The position numbers and the translations under genes are program-made. A DNA stretch of 64,000 bases from positions 1 through 64,000 of the IMG/VR virus record IMGVR_UViG_3300014204_000124. The stretch is one strand, 5' to 3'. Under the pieces are notes generated by a model. It did no database searches, was not told the origin of the DNA, and saw only the letters and a list, made by a program, of their open reading frames with translations. This DNA comes from a virus (lineage: Duplodnaviria > Caudoviricetes). Below, piece by piece: positions 11,337-57,877 of the stretch (positions are counted from its first letter, which is position 1; each line of letters starts with the position of its first letter).

Positions 11337-11443
11337 TTTCGAAGTCTCAGAAATAAATTCTTGACATTATTCGCAGTCCGATTATGCTGTAAGCGTCCAG
11401 TAGAGGAACTGGGCATTGACAGCTAATGGAGGACATCATGAAA
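11337..11443 (+). repeat. Promoter-leader cassette repeat, copy A
   Basis: 11337-11434 matches 57780-57877 with 4 mismatches in 98 bp; also near-identical to 43388-43483. Confidence 0.95.
11361..11392 (+). promoter_or_regulatory. Sigma70-type phage promoter (family copy)
   Basis: TTGAC-N17-TATGCTGTAA with A-rich UP element. Confidence 0.85.
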
Positions 11444-12435
11444 AACTACAGAGTCGTCGGCCTGCGGGCCGAGTGTTTAGCACCCGTGCCCGCGGACAAC
11501 GGGTACGGGTTGTCAATAACTGCCGACACTAATGATGTCGGTGGATATAAGCTGGCGTGGCACGGCCACACGCCGCGGCAGTTTTGCCGGGCTTGTGCGG
11601 GAGAGGGGCCATGCCCCATGGAAGCCGCTGTTTTGGGGGCGTGGGTGGTACAGCGACGCGGCTAACCTCCAGCGCCAGTCGGGGCCTTGTACCGGCGGGA
11701 GGAAGAGATGTTTGTCGACTATGGAGATTTGGATGGGGCTAAGGCCGCCGGTAGGGAGGCGAGGGTGCAAGAGGCGACGGGCGTTGTTTATGCGTATTCT
11801 CTTTTGATAGACCGTGTGAGGGAACATGCTGAGTGGAGGGTGAACTTAGACCCTACTTGGCAGAGAGATATGTCCGGCGATTTTATTCGTAACGGTGAGT
11901 TGGTGAAAGGGCCGTGCCTTTGGACGAGTCCTCCGAAGTTTGAATCTGCCAGCATAGACCGCCAAGGGGTTGTAGAGGTGTGGTTCGCTTCCGTGCGAGA
12001 CGGTGAGCAATCCTTCACTTTCCCGATGGTGGATTTGTTCGTTCTAGAACACGAGTTGTCTGGTCGTATTGAGACAGAGGCGTCGGAACGGTTTTCAAAA
12101 CTTCGAGACGAGTATAAAAAACTTCGAGACGAGTATAATGGGTAGCAAAGAGGTGATTCATGAAAAGCGGTGGCTCGGCAAGGCGTAGTGTGTCCAGAGT
12201 CGTGTTGAAGTGGTCTGAGAATGACCGTGACCGCGGTTATTGGGACGTGTCATGCTTCGATGCTGAGGGGGTGTATATGTCGAACGCTGCGTTGGAACTG
12301 TTGGTGGAAGACTACAATCTTTTGGAGTATCCGCAAGCGGCAGATGCGGTGCGGCGGGTCTTCCCGAGTGCGACTGTGGAAGAGGACCGATTTGATTTTG
12401 GTCCGGTGAGGATTGGCTCTATGGTCGGAAGATGA
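11438..12435 (+). other. Three small hypothetical CDSs (11438-11665, 11708-12145, 12160-12435)
   Basis: Each has an SD; tandem on + strand downstream of promoter. Confidence 0.6.
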
Positions 12436-12462
12436 ATGTAGTGCAACTGTAGGAGCATTGAA

Positions 12463-13020
12463 ATGACGAGGGAAGAGTTTAAGGCCAGATGGGAGTCTGG
12501 GGATGATGGCGGCGGGATAACGCTTGGCGACATTGCAGAGTGTGCGCGAGAGTGGGGGTTTGCTTCATACCCACAAACGATGTGTATGGAAGAGGTTGTG
12601 TGCATGGTGCTGAAAGAGGCGGGCATCAGCGATGCTGAGGGCATAACAGAGCGCATGTTCGTTGTGATAGGGGGGGGAGACATGTTCTATGATTACGGAG
12701 ATCCGGACGCCATGGAAGCGTGCGCACTTGAGAACAGGGTAGAGGATGATTGGCCGCCTGACCACAAGAGGCTTGCGGTGAGCAAGGCGTTGGTGGCGTC
12801 AGCCACGTTTCATTGTCTTGACTGCGGAAGCCGGTTGGTGAAGAGGTCGGGGCGCTTCGGGGAGTTCCTGGGGTGCTCGGATTTCCCGAGGTGTACGTTC
12901 TCTGTTTCGATTATTGGTGATGGGGAGCAAGACCGTGCTGAAAAGGCTTTGGATAAGTATTTAGCCGACGCAGACCTGTGTGTCGGTGGTGTGGATGGTT
13001 ACGGTTCGTTTAGGAGGTAG
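12463..13020 (+). CDS. Protein with topoisomerase-type C4 zinc ribbon
   Basis: CLDCGSRLVKRSGRFGEFLGCSDFPRC motif. Confidence 0.75.
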   Translation: MTREEFKARWESGDDGGGITLGDIAECAREWGFASYPQTMCMEEVVCMVLKEAGISDAEGITERMFVVIGGGDMFYDYGDPDAMEACALENRVEDDWPPDHKRLAVSKALVASATFHCLDCGSRLVKRSGRFGEFLGCSDFPRCTFSVSIIGDGEQDRAEKALDKYLADADLCVGGVDGYGSFRR

Positions 13021-13023
13021 GTC

Positions 13024-13792
13024 ATGGGGAAGGCACAAGATCCGAGAGTGGAAGTAGTCGAGAAGATGAAAAAGCTGCTGGAGCGGTGGGCCTACAGCTT
13101 CGAGATCCCGCAACCTCACGTTGTCGAGACGAAGTATGGCAAAACGGTTTGGTATGGATGGACGGTTGGCAACTATTCCATTGCTCTGAGAATTGTCGGT
13201 CCTGAGTCTAACTTCACTTTCACTCTCATGAAGTTTGGTAGAACCGAGAGCATTCTGGGCGACGACATTGCCAGCCAGGGGTTGATTCTTGGTTTCTTCG
13301 CAGCGTATATGAGTCGGCAGGAGCGTATTGAGAAGGGGAGAGGCGTTTCGTTCCAGCGGATTGAGTTCGTCGAGATTGAACGGTTTGAATCTGAGGACGA
13401 GGCCATTGATTGGATGGTGGCCGAAGTGAATGACCCGTGCATTGACAATCACCGTGTTGGGTACTTCGATAATCCGAAGTCGCTCAAAGAATATGCGCGC
13501 TTAGAGAATGAGGGGTGCTGCGGGTCTTTTGATCACATCGTTTTCATTGGGAAGCGTAGGGCGAAGATTGGTTGCAACTACGGGCATTAAGGAGGCGGCA
13601 ATGAGTTGGGAACGAGCGGTGGGAAAACCAGTCAGAGAAGTGAGGCCGGGGGAGTGCCGGAAGGCGTTGAGGTTAGCGGGGATACTTACGTTCTTGGTGG
13701 ACATGGGGAAAGTGACTGAGGACGAGTTGGGGGCGCTGGGGAAAGAGGCAGTCGAGCAATACCGTAGGTGGGATGCGGAGAAGAAACGATGA
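13024..13792 (+). other. Hypothetical CDSs 13024-13590 and 13601-13792
   Basis: SD-led, closely packed ORFs. Confidence 0.6.
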
Positions 13793-14361
13793 TCAGGAGA
13801 ACGAAGAAGGTTTTGATGGCAGGTCCGGTTCCGTTGACAGAGGGCGAGGCCAAGGAACTGTTGGTTGGGATCGCTGGCGAGCCATGGACGGTTGAAGACG
13901 TTCTGTTGGGAGAGATAAAGCCCGAGGGAGTGTTCTGCGTTTGCTCTGAATTGCCGAATTTGTTCGTGTCTCAGTCCGGTGTGAGAGACTTCAATGGTGG
14001 GGATGTGGACCGTGCGCACGTTGTTTCCATTCTGGTCAATGCTCTGATTCGAGCGGGGAAATCTCTCCCCTGGGAACGTGAGATTGCAGCGTTGCGGGCG
14101 GAAGTTCTGAGCCTGAGCGATACAGTCGAAGTCGTTTGGTACTGCGGGGAACCGATATCGGCCCCTAAGTGGCAAGGGACCGATGCCTACGAGTGCGACG
14201 AGTGCGAGACAAGTTGGTCCTCTCTTGAGAAGGAGAGTGATTGGGAAGAAGGGAGTATTTATTCGGAGTGTCCGTCGTGCGGTAAGGTTCACGACAAGGT
14301 ATCGGGTCAAGCCGAATTGGTAGTAGAATTGATTAACTCTTACGAAGGTGATGTTAAATGA
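13789..14361 (+). CDS. GEPW-family paralog 1, with C-terminal Zn finger
   Basis: GEPWTVEDVLL...LPWERE shared with 51903 and 56441; two CxxC motifs. Confidence 0.65.
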   Translation: MIRRTKKVLMAGPVPLTEGEAKELLVGIAGEPWTVEDVLLGEIKPEGVFCVCSELPNLFVSQSGVRDFNGGDVDRAHVVSILVNALIRAGKSLPWEREIAALRAEVLSLSDTVEVVWYCGEPISAPKWQGTDAYECDECETSWSSLEKESDWEEGSIYSECPSCGKVHDKVSGQAELVVELINSYEGDVK

Positions 14362-15148
14362 TTGAGATGAAACTGAAACTGATGTCGTTTGAAGTGCCTA
14401 CCAAAGTCGTGGTCGCTGAAGCTGTTGGTCAAAGACAGGATGGCTTTCACAGCGTGACGGTGAGTCTGGAGGATGTGCCAGAGGAAGCGTTATCGGCGTT
14501 GTGCGATGAATTCCGCAGCGGTGTTTTCGCCGCTGCTGGCAAGTGCGATCCTAGATTGACTGACAAGGAGGTTCCATGACAGAGGATATAGGTGTTATTC
14601 AGTATGAAGAGGTCAGAACTGCGTTAGAGAGCGCACCTGATTTGATGCGAGACGAGTTCTTTCGTATCAAGGCCCGAGTGGTGGAGGGGAATTTCGATGA
14701 GATCCCGTTCCTTTGCGACCGAGCTGTTTCTGGGATTGAGCAGACCACGCCGGTAGTCGTACAGCGTGATATAGAGGGCGGCGAAGCAATGACACGAAAG
14801 CGACACAAGCCAGGGGAGTATGTCGAGACTCATTGGGGCGGGAAGAAGGCAGATTTCGAATTGGTCTACGGCTGGGTGGACGAGGAGACCTTCGACGAGG
14901 TAGTTAAGCAAGGCCGTGAAGCCATAGGTGGTGATGCGGATCATATCCCGACACTTGGCCCGGCTCGCCACACCTATTGCAGAATCATACCGGAGCCGAG
15001 TGGAGAAAATGCGTTCGTCTACTACTTCCCGAATGATCCTGGACGTGGCGCGTTCAAGGCAACGGTCGCTTTCCGTGATTGTCGCAATATCCGAGAGCTA
15101 GAGCGGGCAAAAAGAGAAGCTGACCCTTTGCCGAAAATAAACCCTTGA
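14358..15148 (+). other. Hypothetical CDSs 14358-14579 and 14576-15148
   Basis: ATGA-coupled ORFs. Confidence 0.6.
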
Positions 15149-15176
15149 CTCTTACCACGATTTGATTATGCTGTAA
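15145..15176 (+). promoter_or_regulatory. Promoter family copy
   Basis: TTGAC-N17-TATGCTGTAA. Confidence 0.85.
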
Positions 15177-15213
15177 GGCGAACAGAGGCGGCGAGTCTTT
15201 GTAGGGAGGCGAA

Positions 15214-18118
15214 ATGACAACGTATATTTGTTCTCACGGTTTTATGGATGTAGGGGAAGGGAAGTTGGGTTTGCGCGATTGGAGGGAGTTTAGTAGCCCG
15301 TCCCCTGAGAGTGTCGCTTTGATGTACGCCATAGAGCGGCAGTGGCAATACGATGGCCTTGCGGGGAAACCGTGGGTGACGCTCGTCGTTGTGACGAAGG
15401 CCGAAGATCCCCCGTTAGGGGTTATCAGGGTTTGGTACTCGTTCGAAGTCTCGCTTGGGTTTGGTAAGAACCGATTGAACTGCTACTCGGTTCAGGCGCG
15501 AGGGTATGCCAGTCCGGTGTTAGATGTGCTTAAGTCGCAGTTTGTATCGGTCCACGATGGAGGATCGCCGTTTTTCTTGGCGCAATCGATTGCGCCCCCC
15601 GTTGATAAGTCCCCGAAGGGAGGCCGTGGAGGAACAAATGAAAGCTGAAAATGCTGATTTTTTCGATTTGTTTGAGACGATTGAGTGGGTCGGGACAGAG
15701 CCAAAGGGGCATGGTTCTTTGGGGCAGAGCGTAGCGACGACGGCGGCAGGGGCCGCCCTGGACTACATGCTGGACGAGGGGGCTAATGCTCTTCCAGAAG
15801 TGTGGGTGCAGGGGCCGGAAGGCCCGGAGACGCTTGAACGGTTCGCTGTGAATTGCGTGTACGGCGGTTTTTGCGTGAAGAGCCTGGGAGGTCCGCAAGA
15901 GTTTGCGCAGGAGATCCAGGGTAAAATTGAATCCGCCACGAAGCGGTTTGACGACGCGTGGGGAAAGGGCGGAAGTAAGCGCCCCGGTGAAGGCTATCGG
16001 GCGATGAAGAACGTCTTTGGAGGCGAGCTTGGCGAGATCATCCCGCCGCCTGGGGGGGGGACGGCAATAGGTCCGTCCGCCGCTGTGAGGTCATACGAAG
16101 AGGTTTTGCATCTTGCTGTTTTTGAACCGTTGCTGGCGACGGTCAACGACATTCGGGAAGCGGTGGAAGCCTATTTGGAGCTTATGCCACAGTCGCTAAA
16201 GTCGCTCAGTGTGTGCCGGTGGGTTCTCTTGACTGCCAGATGCGAACGGTTCCGGGGGTGTTGGATGGTTTTGCGGGATTTTGATGGGGTGTTGGTGGAC
16301 CCGAGTGACGGTGACATCATGTTGCTGCGCCGGGAAGGGAGGCCAAGGGAGTGGAGAGTTGTGGAAAGCTCTAGCGATAACCGTGATCGAGTGAAGCGGT
16401 GTTTCGAGGGGGTGTAGCATGGGCGGCATAGGAGTGGTACAGGTCGACAAGGTGAAGTGGACCAAGAACGGGTTCGAGTTGGAAGAGAAAAGCTGTTGCC
16501 CAATCCCTGGAGGAGTACGAGTGTTTACGCTCCGGTCGGTTTGTGCATGGTGGGGTCACCCGGAAATCGAGTTGAATGCCCTGTCCAGAGAAGACCTCTA
16601 CAGGGAAGCTGTAGAGGCAGGATGTGTCAACACTGGCAAAGAGAAGGCGTAGCATGGATAAGGGACTGTTGGACCAAATAGGTGACTGGCTGCGGGCGAA
16701 CAAGATCCCGTTCCCGAACCGGATGATGATGGTGACTGACTTCGTTCCCAGTGGAAGCGCCAAGGAGCGGTTCCCGCTGTTGAAGCTGGGGTGGGAGAAC
16801 GGGTTGCTGGGGAGCAAGGTATTTATTGAGGTAGAAGATCTGAGGGAAGAGGCTGCCTTCGCTGTGGCATCGGTGACGTTGAACGGTGGCAGTACGGTGA
16901 AGTATGACTGGAATGATTCTCCCAAGCTGGAATGGATCAAGGAGCTTATCAACGAGGTCTACTTCCCGACCCCAGAAGTGATAGGTGGCGTGTTCCCAGA
17001 TAGCGATGCCGATTCAGACCTTCGGGCCGGGTTGTCGCTGGGGTTTCTGAAGCGTGGAGTCCCTGCGCCGTTGGTGTTTCGAGTTGAGGATGATCTGATG
17101 ATGTTTGCAACGAAGGTGGGATGCAAGTGGAAGGCGTGTGTGAAGCCGATGAACGCTGGTGACTTCCGGGAACACGCGAAGTGGAGTGTTACATATCCTG
17201 GTCTGGTGTTACAAGCGAACGTGACCTTTCGAGAAGTGGCAGCACAGTTCCCGAAGAGTTTGAGCGACCAGAATGTTGCGTTCGTGCGAGGGTACATGGG
17301 AGTGGGTGACGAGGCGGTTCCACCGGCTGACCATTGGGCAGGGATGGTATGGCGGGGCAGGACGTTGCATGGTGAGTGATGAAGGACTAGAGTGGCGATA
17401 TGTTAGTTATCTTAATGGTGCTGTTCGTGGTGTTGTTGGCTTGGTTGAAACCGTGGAAGGATAGGTGAGTCATGATGACCGTGCAAAAGCTGGGGGTTTC
17501 GTTGGCTGAGGCGGTGCTGTCTGCACTGAGGAGCCAGGGCGTAGCGGACGAGTTCGGGAGCATCATGCACGTAGGCTTCGACTTTTACGACGGGAAGGCC
17601 GGTACGGCTAGCGTGCCCAAGATCATGTGCATTGCCTATAATGGCGAGACGACAGGCTACATCATTGATACAGCCAAGTTCGACTGTTCCATGTTCAAGG
17701 TTCGCAAGGGCAGAATACGCCAAGCACGTCGTTGTGTCGGGGAGCTTACGCTGCCGCAGGGCAATGTTCGGAACAGAGGGGGTGAGTCATGAAAATCGTG
17801 TTTGAACTGGAGTTACCGGAGTTCTCGCCTGCGTATGTGAAGAGTTTCGGGTACGGTGAGGTTGAAAACCCGCATATCGGTGCCGAGATGATAGTGGGGC
17901 ATTCGCTTCCGTGGACCCAAGCCCCTCCGAGAGACGAGACGGTGACCATGGCTTATACGTCGAATGCCGAATGTGCTTTTGACGAGGCGGTAGCGCAATT
18001 GATTTCGGGGGTGAAGGCCCGAGGTCTTGGACCCCACGTTGTGAAGGCGCAGGACAAGGAGGTCCTTGACATGATTCTGGCGGTAGCGTTGAAGGCCAGA
18101 ATGAAGGAAGGGTTGTAG
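15214..18118 (+). other. Hypothetical CDSs 15214-15648, 15638-16417, 16419-16652, 16654-17379, 17472-17792, 17789-18118
   Basis: Packed + strand ORFs with SD sequences. Confidence 0.55.
15579..15596. promoter_or_regulatory. Perfect 18-bp palindrome, candidate operator
   Basis: GGCGCAATCGATTGCGCC; related copies elsewhere in window. Confidence 0.5.
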
Positions 18119-18129
18119 CGACAAAATGC

Positions 18130-18161
18130 TTGACGTTTCAGCGTGGTCTGTTATGCTGTAA
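18130..18161 (+). promoter_or_regulatory. Promoter family copy
   Basis: TTGAC-N17-TATGCTGTAA. Confidence 0.85.
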
Positions 18162-18182
18162 TGCGAGCTAGCGGATTGAGTA

Positions 18183-20206: not shown

Positions 20207-20221
20207 GAAAGGAGACTGCCG

Positions 20222-29408: not shown

Positions 29409-29440
29409 TTGACTTCGGATTTACTTCGATTATGCTGTAA
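29409..29440 (+). promoter_or_regulatory. Promoter family copy with leader hairpin and TGACAGC
   Basis: TTGAC-N17-TATGCTGTAA; GTCGGG..CCCGGC hairpin, TGACAGC at 29465. Confidence 0.85.
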
Positions 29441-29488
29441 CGGTCGGGAGGGGAAAGCCCGGCTTGACAGCGAACCGAGGAGAATGTC

Positions 29489-29659
29489 ATGGCAGAGAAA
29501 ATCGATTGCCAAGCGAAGTACGCAAGCCGTGAATTGAAGGCTTACTGGAAACGCCGTCTCACTCGTGAGGAGCGCCGGGCTTCGAAGGTTGCCCTTGTGA
29601 GTCGTCCAGAGGATTGCGGGCGTATCGAAGCTCGCTTGACAAAGGGTTGGGCAGGGTAG
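29489..29659 (+). CDS. 56-aa basic protein (not in ORF track)
   Basis: SD GAGGAG; MAEKIDCQAKYASRELKAYWKRRLTREERRASK...KGWAG*. Confidence 0.6.
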   Translation: MAEKIDCQAKYASRELKAYWKRRLTREERRASKVALVSRPEDCGRIEARLTKGWAG

Positions 29660-38423: not shown

Positions 38424-38455
38424 TTGACTTCTCCGGTGAGCTGATTATGCTGTAA
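38424..38455 (+). promoter_or_regulatory. Promoter family copy with leader hairpin and TGACAGC
   Basis: TTGAC-N17-TATGCTGTAA; GTCTGGT-AGAGGA-ACCGGAC, then TGACAGC. Confidence 0.9.
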
Positions 38456-38500
38456 GAGTCTGGTAGAGGAACCGGACATTGACAGCTTTCGGAGGACATC

Positions 38501-39728
38501 ATGTATGAAGTAGAAAATCTGAAGACTGGGGAATGTCGAGTCTCCTTCACGCTAAAGGATGCGAGGGAGATCGCCAGAGGCAAGACTCACTACGCGATAT
38601 GGGAAGGGGAGCTGGATGAGTTGGATGACGGAGGGTTCTATGGGAATCGTCGTGTGGAGCTTTGCGATCCTTACGAGGGAGACGACGACAGAGTGAAGCA
38701 GGCGTTGGGCCAGTCCGATTCAGTTCGATAACAGCTAGGAGGATATTATGAACAGAGAAATCAGAAATGCTTCTCCCAAGATCCTTCATGCTTTGCGTGC
38801 GTTGGATGCTTCGGAGCATACCGGATACAACGCATTGATCCCGGAGGGCCGTGAGAAGGCTGCGTGGGAACTGCTTTGCAGTGACCCGTGTGTGGTTCAA
38901 GTCGAGGCGATCTTCTACGGAGAGTTGTCTGACTCTGCGATGATGGGGTGAGCTATGACTTTGGACGATGCGAAAAACTGGGTCGTTGAAGCGGTGCGTG
39001 CGGGCCGCTTCGGACGGGCACGCGATCTGTATAAAGAGAATTGTTTCCTGTGTGGCCGGGAAACGATTGAAGCCGTTTGGGCCACGGGTGCGATTTCGAA
39101 GCGGCAATTGAAGCGATACTTCGGCGTGAAGGTCGTTTCTCTGGATGCCGAGGACGCTGTCTGTGAGCACGGGATGTTTGCCAGCGACGTTGAATACTTG
39201 CGTCGTGAGGCGTGGTCGCATGGGATAATGTGGTCAGATGTCAAGACGATTTTTGCTGACAGTGACAGGAAAATTGCTGCGAAAGTGAAACGGTTCAACG
39301 ACAAGTTTGAACGGGAATTGCAGCGTCGTGGAATGTTCTAGTTGGCTAAGGAGAATGGAATGGGGACAAATTACTACATGGAGCGAGGGGTTTGCCCTCA
39401 TTGCGACAAGTCTGAATTCGAGTTTCACATTGGCAAGTCTTCTATGGGGTGGGCGTTCACGTTACACGTCTATCCGGGGGGTGATTCTGGCTGGGCTGAT
39501 TCTCCAGAGACAAAGGGTTTCCCGCCCCGAACGTGGGAAGAGTGGAAGACAGAGTTGATGGTTCCGGGGACTCGTGTTGTTAACGAGTATGGGGATTGTG
39601 TTGCGTTCGATGAATTTGTGGAGACGGTAGAAGCCAGAGGGACTTCGTTTCGTCGGCATGATATCGGGCAATTTTGCCTGAGCCACGGGGAAGGGTCGTG
39701 GGATAATTGTACGGGGGTGTTCTCATGA
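38501..39728 (+). other. Hypothetical CDSs 38501-38731, 38748-38951, 38955-39341, 39360-39728
   Basis: SD-led ORFs; last has MGTNYY...HIGKSS.GW.F pattern common in phages. Confidence 0.6.
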
Positions 39729-40993
39729 GAAAGCTCTTCATTTTGTTGTTTGTTTTGTCGTGTTCGGAGGGTGCCGAACCGGGCATGGAGGTTGACCCAA
39801 TTGAGGCTGGGATGCCGGGTGGGACTTGTTACGGGAACGGGACGTGCAATGAGGGGCTTGTTTGTAAGGCGTGGGTATGTGTGTATGCTTCGGATGTAGT
39901 GTCCGATTTGGAGGAGGTCGTCGCCCCGGACTTGGCCGAAGAGGTCTTTGTTCGGAAGGATGGGACTGAGGAAGTTGGCGACATACAGCCGAATTGCGAT
40001 TGTGGCTGGAGGGTCTGTGGGCCGGATGGTTGCGGTGGGAGTTGCGGGGATTGTGAGGGTACAGACGAGTGCGAGACGGGGCTTTGCGTTTGCCAGCCGA
40101 ACTGTGCGGGTAAGGAGTGTGGTGCCGATGGGTGCGGGGGAAGTTGCGGAAGTTGTTCGGTAACGGAGTTATGTGATACGGAGATTTGTGTTCCTGTGTG
40201 TGACATCAATGTGTGTGGGCCGAACGGGATGGGGGGGAGTTGTGGGGTGTGCGAGTATGAATGGGAAGAGTGTATTGAAGGGCAATGTGAAGTATACCCG
40301 TCTCCGGTGATTTGGGTTTCGATACCGGGCGGGTCGTTTGAAATGGGGTGTTCGCCGGGGGATACATTCTGCCAGGATGATGAGTATCCGGTGCATGTAG
40401 TGAACATATCATCGTTTGAGATGCAGGCGGCTGAGGTGACTGTGTGGCAATGGGTTTCCGTTTTTGGAACGGTGCCGGTCTGTCCTGGTCAAGGGACGGA
40501 TTCTGCGTACCCTGCGGGGTGTGCGACTTGGGAGAAGGCGGTTGAGTATTGTGAGGCGATTGGAGGCCGTTTACCGACTGAGGCTGAGTGGGAATATGCG
40601 GCACGGGGCGGGACGACGACGAGGTTCTACTGCGGCGATGATCCTGCGTGCGTGTACGATATTGGATGGGGGCGGTGGAATGCGCCGCATGGTGCTACTC
40701 AGAAGGTAATGGGGAAGTTGCCGAATGCTTATGGTTTGTACGATATGATTGGGAATGTTCGGGAGTGGACGGCTGATTACTATGGGCCGTACAATGTTTG
40801 GGAGCAGTATGATCCCAAGGGTCCGAGTGAGGGGGAGCATCGTGTTTCGAGGGGTGGTTCAGCGGCGGAAGGGACTACTGGGGTATCCAAAACTGTTCTG
40901 ATGAGTATATCGACTAGGCTTCCATTGTCCGTGGGACAGGGCTACCATCCCATAGCAAGTATGTGGCAGGGATTCCGCTGCGTGAGGGATTGA
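39725..40993 (+). CDS. Lipoprotein with Cys-rich repeats and FGE-sulfatase (C-type lectin fold) domain
   Basis: Lipobox FVLSC; CGPDGCGGSCG repeats; GSFEMG, RLPTEAEWEYAARGG, PNAYGLYDMIGNVREW, RGGS, GFRCVR. Confidence 0.9.
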   Translation: MRKLFILLFVLSCSEGAEPGMEVDPIEAGMPGGTCYGNGTCNEGLVCKAWVCVYASDVVSDLEEVVAPDLAEEVFVRKDGTEEVGDIQPNCDCGWRVCGPDGCGGSCGDCEGTDECETGLCVCQPNCAGKECGADGCGGSCGSCSVTELCDTEICVPVCDINVCGPNGMGGSCGVCEYEWEECIEGQCEVYPSPVIWVSIPGGSFEMGCSPGDTFCQDDEYPVHVVNISSFEMQAAEVTVWQWVSVFGTVPVCPGQGTDSAYPAGCATWEKAVEYCEAIGGRLPTEAEWEYAARGGTTTRFYCGDDPACVYDIGWGRWNAPHGATQKVMGKLPNAYGLYDMIGNVREWTADYYGPYNVWEQYDPKGPSEGEHRVSRGGSAAEGTTGVSKTVLMSISTRLPLSVGQGYHPIASMWQGFRCVRD

Positions 40994-43387: not shown

Positions 43388-43483
43388 GAAATAAATTCTT
43401 GACATTATTCGCAGTCCGATTATGCTGTAAGGGTCCAGCAGAGGAACTGGGCATTTGACAGCTAATGGGGGGACATCATGAAA
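43388..43483 (+). repeat. Promoter-leader cassette repeat, copy B (promoter 43399-43430)
   Basis: Near-identical to copies A and C; includes SD and ATGAAA. Confidence 0.95.
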
Positions 43484-48271: not shown

Positions 48272-48303
48272 TTGACTTCCGGCCCGCTTCGATTATGCTG
48301 TAA
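48272..48303 (+). promoter_or_regulatory. Promoter family copy with leader hairpin and TGACAGC
   Basis: TTGAC-N17-TATGCTGTAA; GGCAAGC-GAGGGT-GCTTGCC, then TGACAGC. Confidence 0.9.
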
Positions 48304-48352
48304 GAGTGGCAAGCGAGGGTGCTTGCCGTGACAGCAACTGAGGGGGTGTATC

Positions 48353-50392
48353 ATGCGGATTGACACAACGAAATTCGGGGACTTGACGGGGTGCATGGAA
48401 GGGATGCTTCGCAGGATCACGAACGGGGAACATCGTGAGACAGCCTTGAGCCAGGAGGCGATGAGTCTTGAGGCAGAAATGAACGCGAATAACAAGGACA
48501 AGCCAGACTGCCTTGTCTCGTTCGAGGAGTGCAGACAAGCGATTGCCCAGTGGTGGGAAGTCGAGGAAGACGAGCGGTCCGATTCTGAGGCGTCTCGGAT
48601 GATGGATGAAGAAACCCAGTTTTAGCGGGGTGTTTCATGGAACGGTTGGAACTGTATCGATTCGAGGTCCGGTTGGCTCAGTTGGAACGTGCCGAACTGG
48701 GTGTGATCGCGATTGACCGTAACAAGACTTCCGAAGAGATCGTCTCTGTGGACGATATTGTGAAGGAAGCGATTCGCTTTTACCTCGCTGCGCGACCCAG
48801 GAACGGTATGGGGTGCCTGATTCGGAAGAAGCCATGAAAAAGAAGCTGCAATACATGATCGACTTGGACGGGCCCTTTTCTGGAGGGCGATGCTTTGCTC
48901 CGGTTCCGGATGCGAAGCGGTTCGAATCCAGGCTTGTCAAGGGTCGGCTTATCCGGTCTCGGTTGGGCTACACTCCGAAGGAGTTCTGCGCTGTGTGCGC
49001 GGGCAAAGGCAAACCGTGTCCGATGGAAACGATCGTAGAAGCGGAGTGGTTGAAGTGAGCGTATACGAACAAGTTTTGAAACAGCAAGGTCCGGCTCCAA
49101 AGGGCAGACCGTGGTTCGCGTGGTGTTACGGAGCGCCGGTGACTTGGCATTCGAGTCAAGAGTTGGCCAGGAAGGCTGGGAATCGTCGTGCCAGACGCTT
49201 GAGCCGTGACAATCCTCCCACCGTTTTCGTGATGGGGCCGAAATGAAAGGGTACATCATCCGGCGGAGCAACGACGGGGCCTGTTTTGTGGGGGCCGGTT
49301 GGCGCTGGTCTCCCAAAGCCCCCAGGGTGTTTTCTTTCGCTACCGATCTACCAGACAAGGTAGAGTCCGAGGGTGAGAAGTGGTATCGCTCCGAAAACAA
49401 GGGGCTTCGCTACCGGGATAACAGGGGCGTTGCCAGGGCGCTAATTCAACGAGTGGGGTGAATCATGACTACAGCGGAGAGAATCGGAGCGCACTTGAAA
49501 CGGTTGGATGCGGACGAGTTCGATGCGATGCAAAAATACTTGGCAGCGTTGGGAGACCTGGAGTCGATCTGTGCTGCTGGCCTGGACGCCGGTTATGAGG
49601 AAGTGAGGTTCGCTTGTCGAAAGGCTACGGACCTTGGGCTTCAACTTGAACAAGCCAGTAGAATCGGTGAAGCGGTTCGGTGCGCCTACGTCGAGACCGG
49701 GCATTTGGACGCTCTGACCGGGAAGGTCATACAATGAGGTTCGGCATATACGAATCGGCGGTGCTTGGGCATATCCGCATGATCATGGTTGTGGAGGCTG
49801 ATACGGCGAGAGAGGCGTTCATCCGGTTCGGGTCGTTTCGTCGTGGGAATGGTCCCACAAATGCGCAGTGGGTCCACTGGAAGTTTTTAGGTAAACCGTG
49901 TTGTAGTATCTTCGCAGCGCCAGAACAAGCGGGGTGGGGAATAGGTCATATCCAACAATGGAATGAAAAGCCTCTATATGAGGGCGGCTGCGGAATCTGG
50001 TTCCAACGGGACGGTGGCTACCCTCCAGCTTTCGAGCCGATGCACTGGCACGAGTTGGAGCGAGAGGTAACACTGTTGGTTGCCCCAGTTCAAGCGAGAG
50101 AGGAGAGTGGGAAATGAACGGTGAATTTGACGATATGGGTTATGAGTCTGACGATGATGGCGTCAAACTGAATCGTTGGGATCTGGCAGCGTTTCGTCGG
50201 CATGTTCGGGGACTGAACAAGGTGTTGGCGGATATCCGGGGATACTGTCCAGAAGCCAACTTCTATCTCGCATGTGATTCTTTGCACGTAATGTCAGGAC
50301 AGTCGCATGTTGGCCATACTGGAGAGAAGGCTTGCCAGAAGAACAGCATTGTCAGCGAGAGTCTTTTCCATTCTGGTGGTGGAGATTGGTAG
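48353..50392 (+). other. Hypothetical CDSs 48353-48625, 48637-48837 (RHH-like), 48834-49058, ~49055-49246, 49243-49461, 49465-49737, 49734-50117, 50114-50392
   Basis: Coupled ORFs. Confidence 0.55.
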
Positions 50393-50413: not shown

Positions 50414-50923
50414 ATGAAAGGGTTGACAGTGATACAGCCGTGGGCATGGCTCATAGCGAACGGGAAGAAGCTGATTGAGACGAGGACGTGGTCGACGGAC
50501 TACCGAGGGCCGCTTCTGATTCATGCGGGGAAGAGATTTGGGAGCGAGGAATCGTATGTTTGCCATTGTTTCCGGGGCACCTATATGCGTTCTTCTCCTG
50601 TGCCTGAGAGTCAAAGGGTTCCTGTACCGTATGATCTGGAGCTTGGGGCGGTGGTCGCTGTTGCCGAACTGGCTGGGTGCCGGTTGTTGCGAGAAGATGG
50701 TCTAAGGTCTGCCGCCGGGTTCTTGGGTGTGGAAGGGGAAGTCCCTGAATACGTCGCAAGGTTCTTTCGCCACTACCATGGGTTTCCCCGGCTTTATGCG
50801 TGGGTGTTGAATGATGTTCGGAAGCTGGAGAACCCAGTCGTGTGCCGGGGGTTGCAGAAATTGTGGACGCCATCGGAAGATGTTTTGGCGAGGGTCAACG
50901 AACAGTTGCAGAAAAATTCTTGA
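50414..50923 (+). CDS. ASCH domain protein
   Basis: LTVIQPWAWLIANGKKLIETRTWST.YRGPLLIHAG ... GLQKLW. Confidence 0.9.
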   Translation: MKGLTVIQPWAWLIANGKKLIETRTWSTDYRGPLLIHAGKRFGSEESYVCHCFRGTYMRSSPVPESQRVPVPYDLELGAVVAVAELAGCRLLREDGLRSAAGFLGVEGEVPEYVARFFRHYHGFPRLYAWVLNDVRKLENPVVCRGLQKLWTPSEDVLARVNEQLQKNS

Positions 50924-50951
50924 CAATCCCGCCCCCTTGATTATACTGTAA
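50920..50951 (+). promoter_or_regulatory. Promoter family copy with leader hairpin and TGACAGC
   Basis: TTGAC-N17-TATACTGTAA; AGGC-GATAGA-GCCT, then TGACAGC. Confidence 0.85.
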
Positions 50952-50993
50952 GGGAATTGAGGCGATAGAGCCTAACTGACAGCGAGGGGAACG

Positions 50994-51293
50994 ATGATAA
51001 CTAGAAGCGAGGTGGTCACGTTTTTGAATGTTCTGCGTGAGGACGGAACCCACGTTGAGGAGTTGCAGGATGCGCCGTGCGGTGCCGCTGTTGCGTCTGT
51101 GGGGGGAGGGAGACGTTGGTTGTTTCTCCCTGAGAGGGTAATCGGTGACACGGGGGAGGTTACGGAAGGGTTTTCGTCGGATTTGTGGCCCGTGACAAAT
51201 TGTGGCCACAACCGGCCTGGGTGTAGAAAAGTTGGTTGTCCGGCGGTGGAAGACCAGGAATGGGCTGCCGCTCAAGATGGGGGTGATAAATGA
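50994..51293 (+). CDS. Hypothetical protein
   Basis: First gene after promoter. Confidence 0.6.
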   Translation: MITRSEVVTFLNVLREDGTHVEELQDAPCGAAVASVGGGRRWLFLPERVIGDTGEVTEGFSSDLWPVTNCGHNRPGCRKVGCPAVEDQEWAAAQDGGDK

Positions 51294-51505
51294 GAAGAGA
51301 GCCAGTTATCAGCAGTAATGTGAAGGCCGTAGGGCATGACGCGAAGACCTCAACTCTGGAGGTCGAGTTCAATTCCGGGGCCGTGTATCAGTACACGGGT
51401 GTTCCGAAAGAAGTCTACACGGCGATGGTGGGAGCCCAGAGTGTTGGCAAATACTTCGGGGCGAACGTGAAGGGGGTGTATCCCTTCGTGAAGATCTCCG
51501 GGTAG
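51290..51505 (+). CDS. KTSC domain protein
   Basis: SSNVKAVGHD....TLEVEFNSGAVYQY.GVP...Y..M..A.S.GKYF. Confidence 0.9.
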   Translation: MRREPVISSNVKAVGHDAKTSTLEVEFNSGAVYQYTGVPKEVYTAMVGAQSVGKYFGANVKGVYPFVKISG

Positions 51506-51513
51506 TCAGTCGA

Positions 51514-51529
51514 GCCCCCGCAAGGGGGC
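51514..51529 (+). terminator. GC hairpin with GCAA loop after KTSC gene (terminator or processing site)
   Basis: GCCCCC-GCAA-GGGGGC; no good U-tract; abuts palindrome motif. Confidence 0.4.
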
Positions 51530-51552
51530 GCAATCGATTTCGGGGTGAGTCA

Positions 51553-51906
51553 ATGACTACCAGAGAATCCATGGAGTGTCCGTTCTGCAAAGAGAAGCTG
51601 GTTTTCGTTCGGGTTACGAACGGGGATTGGGGACTGTGTTGCCCGGAGTGTTGCTTCGCACTGCCGACGTTTCGAACTCAGGAAATGGCCGGGGACAAGT
51701 GTTTTGCCTTGTGCGACCAGATCGCTTTGAGGGTAGCTGCGAAGGTAGAGGGAGCGAGAGCGGAGTTGGCCGAAGAGAAGGCGAAGGTGGCTGCGTTGAT
51801 GGACTTGCTTGATGGCAAGACGGTTGATGCGAAGTTCCTTCTCCCAGCACCGCTGAGGTTCGTGGAGATGACATTCGAGCTACCGAAAGATGGAGGCGAA
51901 TTATGA
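51553..51906 (+). CDS. Zn-finger protein, paralog of 55299-55532
   Basis: SMECPFCK.KLVF....GLCC..C. Confidence 0.6.
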   Translation: MTTRESMECPFCKEKLVFVRVTNGDWGLCCPECCFALPTFRTQEMAGDKCFALCDQIALRVAAKVEGARAELAEEKAKVAALMDLLDGKTVDAKFLLPAPLRFVEMTFELPKDGGEL

Positions 51907-52241
51907 CAGAGTTTGAGGCGAAGCAGGCTGTTGTGGATGTAGTGGGAGAGCCGTGGGCGGTGGAAGACGTGTTGCTGCGTCCGTACGGTAACGGAGGCTG
52001 GGCGATTATGGCGACGCGTCCGCTTCGTATAGTTGTCGTTGGGAGACAAGTTCTGGAGTGTCACGGCCCGGAAGCGGGGCGTCCTGCGGTGGTCGGTGCT
52101 CTTGTCGAGTCTTTGTTGTCGAGCGGGCGTTCGCTGCCGTATGACCGGGTGCTACGGGAGAAGGCCGCAGCATGGGCCGAAGAGAAGGAAGAGTTGGAAG
52201 GGAAGATTCAGGAACTTGAGGAAGCGTTGCGGATAACGTAG
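51903..52241 (+). CDS. GEPW-family paralog 2
   Basis: EAKQAVVDVVGEPWAVEDVLL...LVESLLSSGRSLPYDR. Confidence 0.65.
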   Translation: MTEFEAKQAVVDVVGEPWAVEDVLLRPYGNGGWAIMATRPLRIVVVGRQVLECHGPEAGRPAVVGALVESLLSSGRSLPYDRVLREKAAAWAEEKEELEGKIQELEEALRIT

Positions 52242-52252
52242 GGGGTGGCAAT

Positions 52253-52858
52253 GTGCAAGGAAAGCAAGTTCAACTTGGTTGGTGGCTAAACCAGATGAGA
52301 CGCGCCTTGAGAGGGGAAGGAGACTACAAGATTACGCAAGAGCAAGAAAGACGTTTGACGGCTTTAGGAGCACGTCTTTGCCGTAATTTTGTACGAGGCG
52401 AAGAGATGTTTCAAAAAACAATCACAGAGTTGCAAGATTTCAAGTCAGAACATGGGCATTTAGAAGTTCCTGACTCTACCAAATTGGGAGCACGGCTTAC
52501 CAGAATTAGAATGGACATTAGGAGAGGCAAGACAATAGCTGGCGGGAATACGCTTTCGCCCGAGCAGGTACTTTGCCTGCGGGATATGGGAGTGCGCCTG
52601 GAACTGAGAAATGGAAGAGGGGGAGAATGGTTTGAGAAGCGTTTTCAGGAGTTGGTGGAATTTAAGTTAGCGCATGGTGGAAATTTGCCGAATGGAGCGG
52701 ATAAAGCCTTGCGGCACTGGGTTTACATAAGGTCGCAGATGATAAGGGGCAATATCGAATGTACGATGACAGAAGAACAAAAAAGCAGGCTGGTGCAGGC
52801 GGGCGTAGGGGTTACAAAAGACAAAAGCCAGGGAAGCGAGGTGCATCCTTGGGCTTGA
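52253..52858 (+). CDS. Helicase-associated (HA) domain repeat protein
   Basis: ELQDFKSEHGHLEVP...LG and FQELVEFKLAHG...L.HW repeats; no helicase core. Confidence 0.7.
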   Translation: MQGKQVQLGWWLNQMRRALRGEGDYKITQEQERRLTALGARLCRNFVRGEEMFQKTITELQDFKSEHGHLEVPDSTKLGARLTRIRMDIRRGKTIAGGNTLSPEQVLCLRDMGVRLELRNGRGGEWFEKRFQELVEFKLAHGGNLPNGADKALRHWVYIRSQMIRGNIECTMTEEQKSRLVQAGVGVTKDKSQGSEVHPWA

Positions 52859-52895
52859 ATAGGTAATGCCGCATGGAGCGGGGGAGGGGTGTGAT

Positions 52896-54416
52896 ATGAG
52901 AAAAGCGCACGAGGTTGTTCCGAGACCGGATATGACGCAGTATCTTTACTTCTTTGAGAATGGGTACGGTGCTTCGGTGATTCAGTTCAAGGACGGGCAT
53001 GAAGGGCTTTGGGAGCTTGGGGTTAGGGAGAAGGGGAAGCGTGGGATGTGGTGTCTGACCGATAAATCTCCCATTGGCGACGTGGTGTTTGGAGGGCAGA
53101 CCGAGGCTGAGATTGACGCCTTGCTCGACAGGCTTGAAGCGTTGCCGAAGAGGTTCGGGGCGAAAAGTTCTGTACAGAAAGAGGTGGTAAAATGAGGAAG
53201 CGAGGTAAGCCGAGACCGTTCGACGACGTTGGTGGAAAGTTCGACACGACGCCGAAGCGTGAGAGTTGTCTGCCGACTGTCGAGCCTGTACTGGTTGGGC
53301 ACAAAGGCGACCTAACCATTCACGGTCCGCTTGTTTTCCAGACCCCTATTGGTAGACGGAACAACACAAAGGAGCTTTTCGCAAAAGTGATGGCTGAAGG
53401 AGGATTCGCAGCGGCTGCGGTGAGTGTTCCTCCGATGGAAGGCCCTCCGATTGGTTTTACGTTGATGCTTCAAGCCAATAGGGGAGAATCTCGACGGTTG
53501 CATTTGGACTGGTACGGGCTGTGCCGGACGTGCGCCAATTGGGGCGATAAGGTGGGAGCATGGAAGCGTGGGAGCCTGGACGTGTATGTGTGCGGGTGTT
53601 CCGAGTCTGAGCTTTCCGGGCAGCATACCACGTCTTCCGGGCTTTGCCCGAAGTGGGAGTCATTCGACCCGGAAGTGGAGAGCGAGTTAAAGGCCGAATG
53701 GGATCGTGGCGAGAACCCAGGGGAGTAGGTGATGAGGAAGAAGACTGTTCCGAAAAACAATGTCAACAAAGCGTGTGCTTGGGCTGGGATTAGGAGGGTT
53801 CGTCGTAACCTGGACGAGTTTGAAGCGTCGGCATTTGAGACAGATGTCCACCCTTCGCTAGACCTGTCTAGGTGGTCTTGGGAAGGGACGTGCCTGACGT
53901 TCCGGGTTGATGAACGGTCGGTGTTATATTTCTTGTTTGACGGGCCTTCGAAGATGGCTTCCATATTCCAGGTGACTTTGTCGTCTGTTCTGGCTGACGG
54001 CGATGTCATGAATATCGTCTTGTCGGATTTCCCAGGTGGTGATGTCGTTGCACGGGCCTTGTTTGGTGACACGGACGCCTGCGACGGCGTTATTACCGCC
54101 TTGAGCTGGAGGCGGAGACATGAGTAAGGTCTTGTGTTGCTACGAGAGTGAGATAGGTGACCCTGCTGCCTGGAAGGAAGTTGGCGACGTTGACGAAGAC
54201 TGTTCGGAGCGGTGGGCAGTTTCAGATTTCTGCGCAGAGGAGCTGATACGCAGGAACATAGCGGAATGGAAGTTCGACTCGGTGGTGGCCGTGTCTTTGG
54301 ACGGCGGGCAGACGTGGGCGAAGTTCGATTGTTATTACACAGAGGAATGTTGCCCAGACTATAGTGACTGCTGGTGGGCGCTTGAGGCGGAGCGGGTGGC
54401 CGAGAATCGTCCTTGA
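52896..54416 (+). other. Hypothetical CDSs 52896-53195, 53192-53728, 53729-54127, 54120-54416
   Basis: Coupled ORFs. Confidence 0.55.
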
Positions 54417-54440
54417 CTTCGCCCCTGATTGTGCTATAAC
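54413..54440 (+). promoter_or_regulatory. Variant promoter
   Basis: TTGACT-N16-TATAAC preceded by TG. Confidence 0.6.
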
Positions 54441-54443
54441 GCC

Positions 54444-56436
54444 ATGGACGGCAAGGAGGCTGCAATGGACGGGTTGGTGGGCAAGAAGGGCGACAATCTG
54501 TTGAATGGCCGGTGCATCCTGGTCATGCCCGGTGGGGTGACGCTCGTCATCGGGCAGGTCCAGTATATTGGTGGGCAAGCGGTAGAGATTGCAGACGCTT
54601 GCCCGGCTCAGTTGTTCAAGTTCCAACTTGACGACAAGCGGACCTTTGACTTGAAGGTAAAGGAATGAAGTACGTTGTGCGCCTTCCCCTTGAAGTGGAG
54701 GCCATGCAGCTTCGGGCTGATTCGCCGGAAGACGAAGTGAAAGCCTTTATTGGCAGCGAGCGTTTCCGAGGGTTCGTCCACGACGAGAATGGGATCAAAG
54801 AAGTCATTGTCTGGATAACCTCTGGGTTCGTTATCGGTGTCAGACCTTCTATGTTTTTGGTGAAGGATGGCCGCGGCGTGACGGTGTACGAGTGGGCAGA
54901 ATTCGACCGCTTGTACAAGGAGAAGCTATGAACAAGGTAACGGGATTGGTAGTGAGGTTCTTCGGGCTGCCTGCTTCGGCTGTACGGGAACCGCTTTGCC
55001 ATTGGCTCCACGCATTTGGTCCCAGTACGGCCAGATATTTAACGATGGCTGCGAAATGGGAAGGGTTTGGAACTAGCTTGATAATACAGACTAGGCCCAA
55101 AGGGGCTGTGGCCCGGTTCTTTTTGCAGATGAAAGACACGGCGAACTGGAGCGAACCGTGGCCTGTGATCAAGGCGAAATTCGAGTCTGGGCAGTATACC
55201 GGGTACAAGTTGGTGGAGTTCGACCCGGCGTTTGACAAAGAGAAGCGGTTGACGGCGATAGCGATTCTGATTGAGCACTTGTGCAAGGGGAGGGCAACAT
55301 GATGGTTCCTGGAAGGTCTATGGAGTGTCCATTCTGTAAGGGGGAACTTGTTTTCGCCAAGGCCGGGGCTGGGGTTGGCCTTTGCTGTCTCGGGTGCGGA
55401 CTCGTAAAGCCATTGATTGAAGAGTACGAGCGGTTGAGGAACGAGGTGGGGAGCGTGAGGGGGCTTCTTGGGGCGTCTGCTTTGCCGACTGCTGCGTGGG
55501 CGGAGCGGGTGGCCGAGAATCCAGGAGAATAGGTGTCATGATGGATTTAAGAATGTCTTTGGGAGATGTCATTGAAAGGTTTCGTCTGGCGAACGGATTG
55601 CCCTCGATTGCTTCATGGGCTCGGGATGGCCAGGGATGGGTGACGCTGCGAATTGGTCGGATGACCCTCACAATGGGCAATGAGCAAAGATGGCACGCAA
55701 GGAGTTGGGGAGGGATCGCCGACAGTCCGTCTGGAACTCTCCAGGATGCCGTGGAGTGGCTGAAGGCACATGGCTTGGACGTACGTCCCGAGCCAGAACG
55801 GTTCGGGTTGATTGGCTCGAAAACGAATGTCTCCGAGCATGGAGGGATAAGTTGGAGTTGGCGTGGGCAGGATGTTCAGTTGCACTACTACCCGTTGGCT
55901 CCAAAGCCGTGGTCTGTTGTTTGGGATTTTGGCGAACAAGAGAACGATTTTGTTTCTTGTTCTGAGGCATGCAAATGGATGATCTCCACCAAATCGGGAG
56001 TATGGTGTCGATGAACAACAAGTTTAGATATAGATTATCAGAACATGCACAAAGCAACGTCGAGAGATGTCGGTGTGGCGGTGAGTGCATTGTTCGTGAC
56101 AGCACGGCGTTTTGCGATACCGGGAAACGGTATGATGGTTTCGAGTGCAACAGCCGGGACTTTGGGTCTGGCTATTGGTACCGTTCGCCGGAATGCGACA
56201 TGAGGTACATCGCGAAACTAGAGTACGAGAATAAATCTCTTATTGAGCAATCGGAGAAAGCCTTGGCTGAAGTTTCCAGACTACGAGTCGCGCTTGCTGA
56301 GGCGTATGAAGCGGTGCATGAGCATTGCGGCATGATGGCAATTGATCCTGGCCCGACCTATGGGTGGGTGAAGGTAGAGTGTAAGGACTGTCAGAGAACA
56401 CAGTGTGTTGTGCAACGATATCCGTTGGAGGTTTGA
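54444..56436 (+). other. Hypothetical CDSs ~54465-54668, 54665-54931, 54928-55302, 55299-55532, 55538-56014, 56011-56436
   Basis: Coupled ORFs. Confidence 0.55.
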
Positions 56437-56440
56437 CGAG

Positions 56441-56821
56441 ATGAAGGACGTTATGACCATAGAAGAGGCGAGACAGCGGGTAGTGGACTTCGTCGGTCCG
56501 CCGTGGACGCCGGATGATGTGATCATTGGTGAGACGGGCACAAAGGGGTTCTTCTTTGCAAAAACGAGAGTTCCCGACGTTTCCGTATCGAGCAGAGGGA
56601 TTCAAGACTTCCACGGGCGGGAAGTGACGAAGGGATATGTTGCTTCTCGGCTGGTCGAGGCTCTATACAAGGCGGGGCAGATACTCCCGTGGGAGCGTGA
56701 GCTTGCCGGGTCGGAACATAGCCGGGAGACACTGTTCGAGGTATGCCATTCGCAGGAGAAGAAACTCGATAGCCTGGAGAGGCAAGTCGAGGAGTTGAAG
56801 GCATTGGCCGGAGGAGGATGA
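56441..56821 (+). CDS. GEPW-family paralog 3
   Basis: EARQRVVDFVGPPWTPDDVIIG...RDF/QDF...LVEALYKAGQILPWERE. Confidence 0.65.
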   Translation: MKDVMTIEEARQRVVDFVGPPWTPDDVIIGETGTKGFFFAKTRVPDVSVSSRGIQDFHGREVTKGYVASRLVEALYKAGQILPWERELAGSEHSRETLFEVCHSQEKKLDSLERQVEELKALAGGG

Positions 56822-57807
56822 TGATGAATAGGTTCGATGTTGTAGCCGAGAAGTTCGAGGCGTTGTGTCGGCAGTACGCCATGCCTGTTCCGAGGGTCGT
56901 GCCGTCGTTGGCGACTGACCCGTGCGACTTCACGTCGGCAGAAGAGGTTCGGTTGAACGTGGAAGCTGCTGGGGAGATTGACGCTGACTACCATGCGAGG
57001 CATGTGTTCGGGCATTACCTATGTGATCTCCACTGTTCGGAGCCGAGCGGGAATCAGGATTGGGCAGACCCGATTGCCGATCTGATAGCGCAGTGGACGA
57101 CGAGCCATGATTCGATGGTCCGTTTGACCAGAGTATTCGAAGGGGCACGGTCATGTTCATCATCGGGAAGCATTGTAAGGATGTCCCTGGTGCAACCGAT
57201 GTCAGAAGGGGCGAATTTGGCATTTTGGCATGAGGGAAAGGAAGATGATTGAGGTAGGTCAGAAGCTATGGTTCGTGCCGTACGAGCCGCACAGGAATCC
57301 ACCGTTTGAGGTGGAGGTGGTCAAGGTCGGAAGGCGGTATGTCACGGTGAGTCGGTGGGAAGGCGACACCAACTTATTGAAACTGGAGAAGGATTCTCTC
57401 AGGCAGGCAGGTAGTGCCGGAAGCAAGGCATACGTGAGCAGGGGCGCGTATGATGATTGGGTTGCCTGCGAGCGTGCGTGGAGTATGTTGCGGGAAGCGG
57501 TATGCTGGTCAAGACCAGAGAGTGTTACGATGGACCGGATCATGGGAGCTTTGGCCTTGCTTCGGGGTGAATAATGGGAGCCATGAGGGTGCGTGGGAGA
57601 AGATTCGTTGTGTGTGACACTGCCGGGATGTTCCGGGGGTGTGCCAAATGTGAGTTTTCTGCTCCTCAATGGAAGGAGGCATTCTGGGCTCCTCCGAATA
57701 GGGCATATGATGTTTGGCATTCAGGGAGGATGCAGTGCCCGTTTGGGCGAGAGATTGGATGTTATCTAGCTGTCAGGCTTTTCGAAGTCTCAGAAATAAA
57801 TTCTTGA
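56818..57807 (+). other. Hypothetical CDSs 56818-57252, 57245-57574, 57574-57807
   Basis: Coupled ORFs. Confidence 0.55.
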
Positions 57808-57877
57808 CATTATCCGCAGTCCGATTATGCTGTAAGGGTCCAGCAGAGGAACTGGGCATTGACAGCTAATGGGGGAC
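57780..57877 (+). repeat. Promoter-leader cassette repeat, copy C (promoter 57804-57835)
   Basis: 94/98 identical to 11337-11434. Confidence 0.95.

Follow-up and report, generated by a model that had tools for sequence, protein, structure and literature searches.

The window analysed here comprises the first 64 kb (64,000 nucleotides) of IMG/VR record IMGVR_UViG_3300014204_000124, a 129,634-bp sequence with direct terminal repeats, and our subject is a leader cassette that recurs behind one class of its early promoters. Each cassette is built in the same order: an A-rich tract, a promoter, one base, a hairpin, 1-4 nt, the heptamer TGACAGC, 0-6 nt, a Shine-Dalgarno (SD) sequence and a start codon. 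Our analysis suggests that the heptamer is better understood as a strand that pairs with the -10 region of its own promoter than as a boxA. All genes of the genome lie on the + strand, and they encode a Gp23-type major capsid protein, a Gp20-type portal protein with an intein, a prohead protease, a tail sheath protein and a baseplate wedge protein, together with DnaB-type, RecA-type and SNF2-type proteins; no tRNA genes were found in the genome. By its sequence this is a distantly T4-like, uncultured phage, whose best major capsid match is ~31% identical.

The promoters of this class read TTGAC-N14-GATTATGCTGTAAG, with an invariant 14-mer core, and were recognized by a promoter scanner as TTGACx, a 16-bp spacer and TATGCT. 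About 18 of them are present genome-wide, exclusively on the + strand and exclusively in the non-structural part of the genome, from 11 to 92 kb; 12 lie within the window. Their sequence identifies them as host sigma-70-type promoters (TTGACa, 16-bp spacer, TATGCT) with a fixed discriminator GTAAG. A-rich tracts of the AAATAAA type precede the -35 element, the -35 spacing is constant across the class, and the spacer between the -35 and -10 elements is randomized between lineages. The seven cassettes of the window are as follows.

Cassette 1, 11361-11440, + strand: -35 at 11361, core 11380-11393, inner hairpin 11395-11414, heptamer 11417-11423, SD sequence, ATG at 11438; composite fold -16.8 kcal/mol, z -3.85.
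Cassette 2, 29409-29491, + strand: core 29428-29441, hairpin 29443-29463, heptamer 29465-29471, ATG at 29489; orthologue in metagenome locus L015.
Cassette 3, 38424-38503, + strand: core 38443-38456, hairpin 38458-38477 (a compensatory variant of that of cassette 1), heptamer 38480-38486, ATG at 38501; z -4.71.
Cassette 4, 43399-43480, + strand, paralogue of cassette 1: core 43418-43431, hairpin, heptamer 43456-43462, ATG at 43478.
Cassette 5, 48272-48355, + strand: core 48291-48304, unrelated hairpin 48308-48327, heptamer 48329-48335, ATG at 48353; z -3.60.
Cassette 6, 50920-50996, + strand: core 50939-50952 (one mismatch), weak 4-bp hairpin 50960-50973, heptamer 50977-50983, ATG at 50994; z -2.10.
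Cassette 7, 57804-57883, + strand: core 57823-57836, hairpin, heptamer 57860-57866, ATG at 57881; 96% identical to cassette 1 over 98 nt.

In these seven copies the heptamer lies 23-24 nt past the 14-mer core and 10-17 nt ahead of the start codon. An earlier, sequence-only reading of the window had described seven promoters, each followed by a hairpin, TGACAGC and an SD sequence, as a conserved leader module behind a class of early promoters; this description holds, and all of its coordinates, including the hairpin starts at 11395, 29443, 38458, 48308 and 50960, are correct. That reading did not extend to the copies outside the window, the variant copies, the promoters without the module or the complementarity between the heptamer and the -10 region. 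About 3.8 heptamers per strand are expected by chance in 64 kb, and the three other + strand copies and the four - strand copies fit this expectation; seven heptamers at one fixed offset behind 12 promoters are beyond chance.

On the + strand of the whole genome the heptamer occurs 13 times, nine of them in cassettes, since the full module is also present at 72041 and 81184, outside the window. Two additional copies, at 67548 and 75549, have the hairpin with a different word downstream. Because the copies at 11337, 43375 and 57780 are recent duplicates, the nine canonical cassettes represent ~6-7 independent lineages. The genes behind the cassettes are ORFans without a Pfam match. Directly upstream of the 81184 cassette, at 80863-81132, lies a gene for an 89 amino acid KH_KhpA-B RNA-binding protein, a gene order common to three related metagenomic phages (L016, L020, and L021).

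About seven promoters of the same class have short, hairpin-free leaders of 15-35 nt and serve similar early ORFans without the heptamer. Those in the window, as read from the sequence, are listed here.

15145-15216, + strand: plain promoter with a short leader and no heptamer.
Cores at 18149, 23623, 26534, and 36745, + strand: further plain promoters.

A promoter-like site at 54427 was dropped, as its -35 spacing is wrong. We also considered an antisense promoter at the heptamer and rejected it on inspection, the - strand match (CTTACA-16-AATAAT) being restricted to the three paralogous copies. These - strand matches (CTTACA, 16 bp, AATAAT/GATAAT; 11366-11393, 43404-43431, and 57809-57836) overlap the forward promoter and are probably due to chance.

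The cassette promoters are located 16-50 nt past the preceding stop codon, often with the -35 element inside the preceding gene, and the terminator scans found no terminator between the preceding gene and a cassette promoter. Terminator-like sites numbered 11, 14, and 8 in three scans, compared with 16.1, 15.7, and 11.6 expected from shuffled sequences, and none was convincingly placed. As the promoters follow so closely on the previous stop without an intervening terminator, transcription from upstream is expected to read through them. A new promoter appears every 3-9 kb.

The inner hairpin is kept by compensatory change, as the sequence-only reading had proposed. Five of its seven pairs are changed on both sides, and its covariation score of 0.202, obtained on an alignment that was itself fitted to the covariance model, compares with 0.107 in shuffles and was reached by none of 500 shuffles. 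The covariation of the inner stem is real. The loops vary in both sequence and length (at least eight kinds, 4-9 nt), including AGAGGA, AGGGGAAAG, GAGGGT, GATAGA, GAGTT, TGGTAT, TGGA and TTAC; AGAGGA is common to 5 of the 12 by descent. In most copies the hairpin starts with the G located seven nt past TATGCT (8 of 12 copies have an offset of 1 from the core), and we infer that this G should be the transcription start (+1). A search with the covariance model (R1) returned no copy that lacked a promoter of this class in front. An Rfam comparison of 143 kb gave no hit that reached the gathering score, and on the cassettes nothing matched at E-values up to 10.

The pentamer ACAGC of the heptamer is complementary to GCTGT, which spans the end of the -10 hexamer and the start of the discriminator. 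In all 11 hairpin-bearing leaders, and in the L015 orthologue, the segment from GCUGU to the heptamer folds into one two-tier hairpin, with a lower helix GCUGU/ACAGC that is often extended by two pairs and is followed by the covarying upper hairpin. This composite spans 38-41 nt and consists of 5 + 2 + 7 bp with two 1x1 mismatches, with 4 bp more in three copies; the fold energies of the 11 sequences range from -9 to -20 kcal/mol (z -1.75 to -5.5). In 11 of 12 cases the sense strand gives the more stable fold (sum -167 vs. -125 kcal/mol for the antisense strand), and since this advantage comes from G-U pairs it points to RNA rather than to a DNA cruciform. When the canonical GCUGU/ACAGC pairing is required to flank the hairpin, it reaches p ~0.03. 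We propose that promoter function, by fixing the pairing partner, keeps the heptamer from varying.

The two variant copies appear to support the pairing over the word itself. Directly past its hairpin, copy 75549 carries GCUUAC, which can pair with the discriminator sequence GUAAGC (p = 0.0014). In copy 67548 the pairing is GCUGUAA/UUACAGU (p = 0.043); of the two differences from the heptamer in this copy, one replaces an A-G mismatch by an A-U pair and the other a G-C pair by a G-U pair, and the lower helix covers the SD sequence and the start codon. It should be noted that the cassette at 75549-75643 has an 81-nt leader with two or three more predicted hairpins ahead of a DUF932 gene, and could represent an independent structured leader or a small RNA.

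Searches for relatives were largely negative. Megablast and tblastn against isolate phages returned only remote relatives, the composite motif and the promoter pattern were both without a match in IMG/VR, and a related-locus search with two phage proteins gave no match; no close relative was found in isolates or in IMG/VR. A metagenome scan for the promoter pattern yielded one true orthologue, L015 (two other hits, L013 and L014, are chance matches). L015 is the orthologue of the 29428 cassette at ~76% nucleotide identity, with an identical promoter and heptamer and with compensatory changes in the stem. The first gene behind it is a diverged homologue, and the sole indel in the little DNA of this relative that could be compared lies downstream of that gene and not at the cassette. 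The conservation of promoter, heptamer and compensated stem beside a diverged gene argues for selection. In L016, in which the neighbouring protein is 56% identical to that of this phage, the promoter (GCUGU) and GACAGC are kept ahead of the orthologue of the 81247 gene, with GACAGC 4 nt ahead of the SD sequence. The inner hairpin is absent from this locus and the spacing between promoter and motif is halved, which argues against a fixed DNA geometry.

A further lineage, at 66% identity, was assembled over 40 kb by walking. Its promoter reads TTGAC-N14-GATTATGCT with the discriminator ACAAC, and beside this discriminator the orthologous leader carries GUUGGAGC (p = 0.067); the word is now GUUGGAGCUAAU, complementary to AUUA-GCU-CAAC. 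In another cassette of this lineage, UAUGCUGU pairs with an AUG-containing segment around the inner hairpin (p = 0.012). The lower helix has thus been arrived at by several independent solutions, and a Fisher combination of five flank-pairing tests gives ~1e-5 by our own arithmetic, on cases picked after the fact. More distant relatives (L017-L020) use other promoters. In L020, whose DUF932 protein is 56% identical, the upstream tract is shared (TCATTTTCCCTC followed by TTGAC; 3265-3457 and 5047-5160) but leads into another promoter, and the G/C hairpins stand directly ahead of the SD sequence and not at +1.

Several observations weigh against pairing between the heptamer and the -10 region as the full explanation. 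When whole leaders are scored, ~20% of random segments yield a duplex of equal strength by chance; the pairing is significant only when it is required to flank the hairpin, and the additional solutions were recognized post hoc. With a whole-leader p of ~0.2, the case for pairing rests on nested geometry and repetition. The lower helix is only 5 bp long and invariant among the canonical copies, and so offers no internal covariation. The U and G of the heptamer are invariant though the G faces an A, which pairing alone does not explain. In the 66%-identity lineage, the orthologous leader has an alternative fold that is more stable than the promoter-pairing one, and one hairpin-bearing leader has no lower helix. 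As to function, a helix of 14-18 bp with mismatches is short for RNase III, and no U-tract follows the hairpin in the cassette leaders, so the composite is not a classical terminator.

The invariance of the heptamer could also reflect recognition by a protein. Under such an explanation it would be a single-stranded RNA operator beside the SD sequence for a sequence-specific RNA-binding protein of phage or host, which would repress or activate translation along the lines of T4 RegA, shutting off or tuning early genes, and its complementarity to the promoter would be incidental. None of the seven bases varies in any of the 10 close copies, not even the U and G that are not needed for pairing; the motif is always 0-6 nt upstream of the SD sequence and stays single-stranded when the cassette's own transcript is folded; and L016 keeps GACAGC at the same 4 nt before the SD sequence despite the other promoter distance. 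The phage and its relatives also encode the KH_KhpA-B protein mentioned above, directly upstream of one cassette, although this is a candidate binder only. However, copies 75549 and 67548 and the cassettes of the relative swap the motif for other sequences that complement their own -10 region, and the plain promoters serve similar early ORFans without it. We consider an operator unlikely, but a sequence-specific binder stays a live rival because pairing leaves the U and G unexplained. The sequence-only reading had instead likened the hairpin and heptamer to boxB/boxA, with antitermination in long early operons as one possible role. In rrn leaders a boxB hairpin is followed by boxA, whose core is U-rich, and the module resembles this arrangement in that a hairpin precedes a conserved single-stranded word, promoter-proximally, at the head of multi-gene co-directional units; a put-like site acting on the nascent RNA would be a variant of the same idea. 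Yet the loops are not conserved beyond the five that share AGAGGA by descent, and the heptamer has no U-rich core of the CUCUUU type when compared by eye with boxA of E. coli rrn and of lambda. L016 has the word without the hairpin, and no Rfam family matches. Terminator-like sites are below expectation in all three scans, and with a promoter every 3-9 kb no long-range read-through is required, although Rho-dependent termination is beyond what a sequence-only assessment can address. We consider antitermination very unlikely.

Two further explanations do not involve RNA function. The word might act on DNA, as TTGACAGC, which contains the -35 hexamer TTGACA, forms with the promoter's GCTGTAA an inverted repeat 31-32 bp apart, which could be a site for sigma region 4 or a regulator, or a pair of operators modulating initiation or early elongation. 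TTGACAGC is found in seven of ten copies, and the distance of 31-32 bp (about three helical turns) is kept in the nine canonical copies, even when the inner hairpin is a small one. On the other hand, three copies read GTGAC or CTGAC, the spacing is halved in L016, the variant copies keep the complementarity and not the word, and the G-U pairs and the bias of folding toward the sense strand favour RNA. The related idea that the heptamer is the -35 element of a second promoter is ruled out, as no -10 element follows at 15-19 bp and the scanner calls no promoter there. A role on DNA thus seems highly doubtful. We give just as little credence to a heptamer without function, carried along by cassette duplication and gene conversion and paired with the promoter by coincidence. 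The three recent duplicates (96% identical over 98 nt), the known behaviour of a comparable class of phage stem-loops as recombination substrates (PMC2839356) and the weak whole-leader pairing test would all suit such hitchhiking. Against it, the -35/-10 spacer and the hairpin sequence are randomized between lineages while the heptamer is exact in nine copies and L015; the heptamer persists in a relative with a neighbouring protein of 56% identity; and the Fisher combination, with its post hoc choice of cases, also speaks against coincidence.

The architecture of these cassettes places them beside a known class of elements. The sequence-only reading took them for a possibly undescribed phage regulatory RNA, but cassettes of promoter, stem-loop and SD sequence have been described in the T4-type phages RB49/phi1, T4/PST and KVP40/nt-1 as promoter-early stem-loops (PeSLs; Arbiol et al., 2010, PMC2839356; Comeau et al., 2014, PMC4122927). 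A PeSL is a unit of ~100 bp with an A/T-rich tract, a strong sigma-70-like early promoter, a stem-loop in one of five positions, an SD sequence and an ATG (PMC2839356, PMC4122927), and its stem-loops have been shown to have terminator or attenuation activity and to undergo mini-circle recombination (PMC2839356). The cassettes described here share all the structural features of PeSLs. They combine a sigma-70-like early promoter and an A/T-rich upstream tract with a stable stem-loop next to the promoter, which overlaps the -10 box as in some PeSL subclasses, and with an SD sequence and start codon at the 3' end of the unit. They are dispersed in many copies over the non-core, ORFan-rich part of a T4-like genome, and include near-identical copies that could recombine (11337 and 57780, 96% identical). 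They differ from PeSLs in their two-tier structure, which extends from the -10 box to +29, in a fixed heptamer that supplies its 3' arm, in an inner hairpin that is part of the locally initiated transcript and would be expected to cap the mRNA at its 5' end, and in stems that are not made of G-runs and C-runs and are not followed by a U-tract. The phage itself is only distantly T4-like. As far as the comparison reaches, the novelty lies in a two-tier design whose 3' arm is frozen, found in a very distant lineage.

Other well-known elements share part of this architecture. The RNase III hairpins of T7 (R1.1 type) are likewise intercistronic hairpins in polycistronic phage RNA, with irregular helices and internal loops, and often lie just past a promoter; the 14-18 quasi-continuous base pairs found here fall short of their usual two helical turns. 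The 5' stabilizers, such as the hairpin of the E. coli ompA leader and those of Bacillus and SP82, resemble the cassette in having a hairpin within 1-2 nt of the predicted mRNA 5' end and an accessible SD sequence downstream, although purine-rich, SD-like loops (GAGG, GGGG) occur here in only part of the copies. A role as a 5' stabilizer, also raised by the sequence-only reading, would fit a hairpin that begins at the predicted +1. The lambda nut and rrn sites share the promoter-proximal hairpin and a conserved single-stranded word on the nascent RNA, but the cassettes lack a boxA-like sequence, a conserved loop and terminators to override, and their word is complementary to the promoter. The suggestion that the loops are CsrA/RsmA targets does not apply to the cassettes in general, since only ~7 of 12 loops contain GGA, which GAGGGT, GATAGA, GAGTT, TGGTAT and TTAC lack.

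Taken as PeSL-type early cassettes, these units may act in two ways, depending on where transcription begins, and we regard this proposal as evenly poised between right and wrong. In local transcripts, the RNA would start with the 5'-terminal inner stem-loop, leaving the heptamer and the SD sequence single-stranded, as in the folds of the local transcript. A hairpin at the extreme 5' end protects an mRNA from 5'-end-dependent decay. The lower helix would be confined to read-through RNA, because its 5' arm lies upstream of the predicted +1; there, the composite hairpin of 38-41 nt would close between cistrons and serve as intercistronic punctuation, most likely as an RNase III-type processing site or a 3'-end stability site. 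Its size and quasi-continuous helices are within range of the minimal RNase III substrate of 34 nt, and internal loops in such substrates lead to single cuts that leave protective 3' hairpins (PMC1540722). It is less likely that the composite would act as an attenuator, or that it would mask the start region where the lower helix reaches the SD sequence or start codon, as it does in copy 67548 and one cassette of a relative. A stronger version, in which the promoter encodes half of a switch and the leader senses the origin of the transcript, so that only read-through copies would be cut, blocked or masked, is speculative and on the whole improbable. To our knowledge, a promoter-embedded sensor of transcript origin has not been described as a designed mechanism.

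Outside these cassettes, other features of the genome deserve mention. The G+C content is ~54% and the GC skew is ~+0.28 genome-wide, and this strand asymmetry (G 33.8%, C 19.2%) is unusually strong and uniform for a 130-kb myovirus. Intein splicing domains are present in the SNF2-type helicase (67588-70167) and in the T4-type portal protein (100075-102837), both outside the window, and the insert in the portal protein additionally bears an HNH endonuclease. The named cellular matches of the DUF932 protein (75644-76696), at ~38-39% identity, are from Pirellulaceae and Gemmataceae metagenome-assembled genomes, a weak clue that the host may be a planctomycete. Within the window, the gene at 39707-40993 encodes a phage protein with a C-terminal FGE-sulfatase (formylglycine-generating enzyme-like) domain, whose PHROGs family is labelled "kinase." Finally, a 56-nt repeat is present four times at 60594-61045 with irregular spacing (102, 96, and 198 nt), within the open reading frame at 60121-61443, and encodes a repeated protein module.

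The cassettes described here would extend PeSL-type regulatory units to a deeply divergent, uncultured T4-like lineage. For motif searches they carry a caution, in that an invariant word beside a covarying hairpin need not be a protein-binding site: the frozen leader word can be explained as base-paired to a promoter element that is not free to change. If the composite hairpin does act on read-through RNA only, this would explain how blocks of genes could be expressed independently under many tandem, co-directional promoters.

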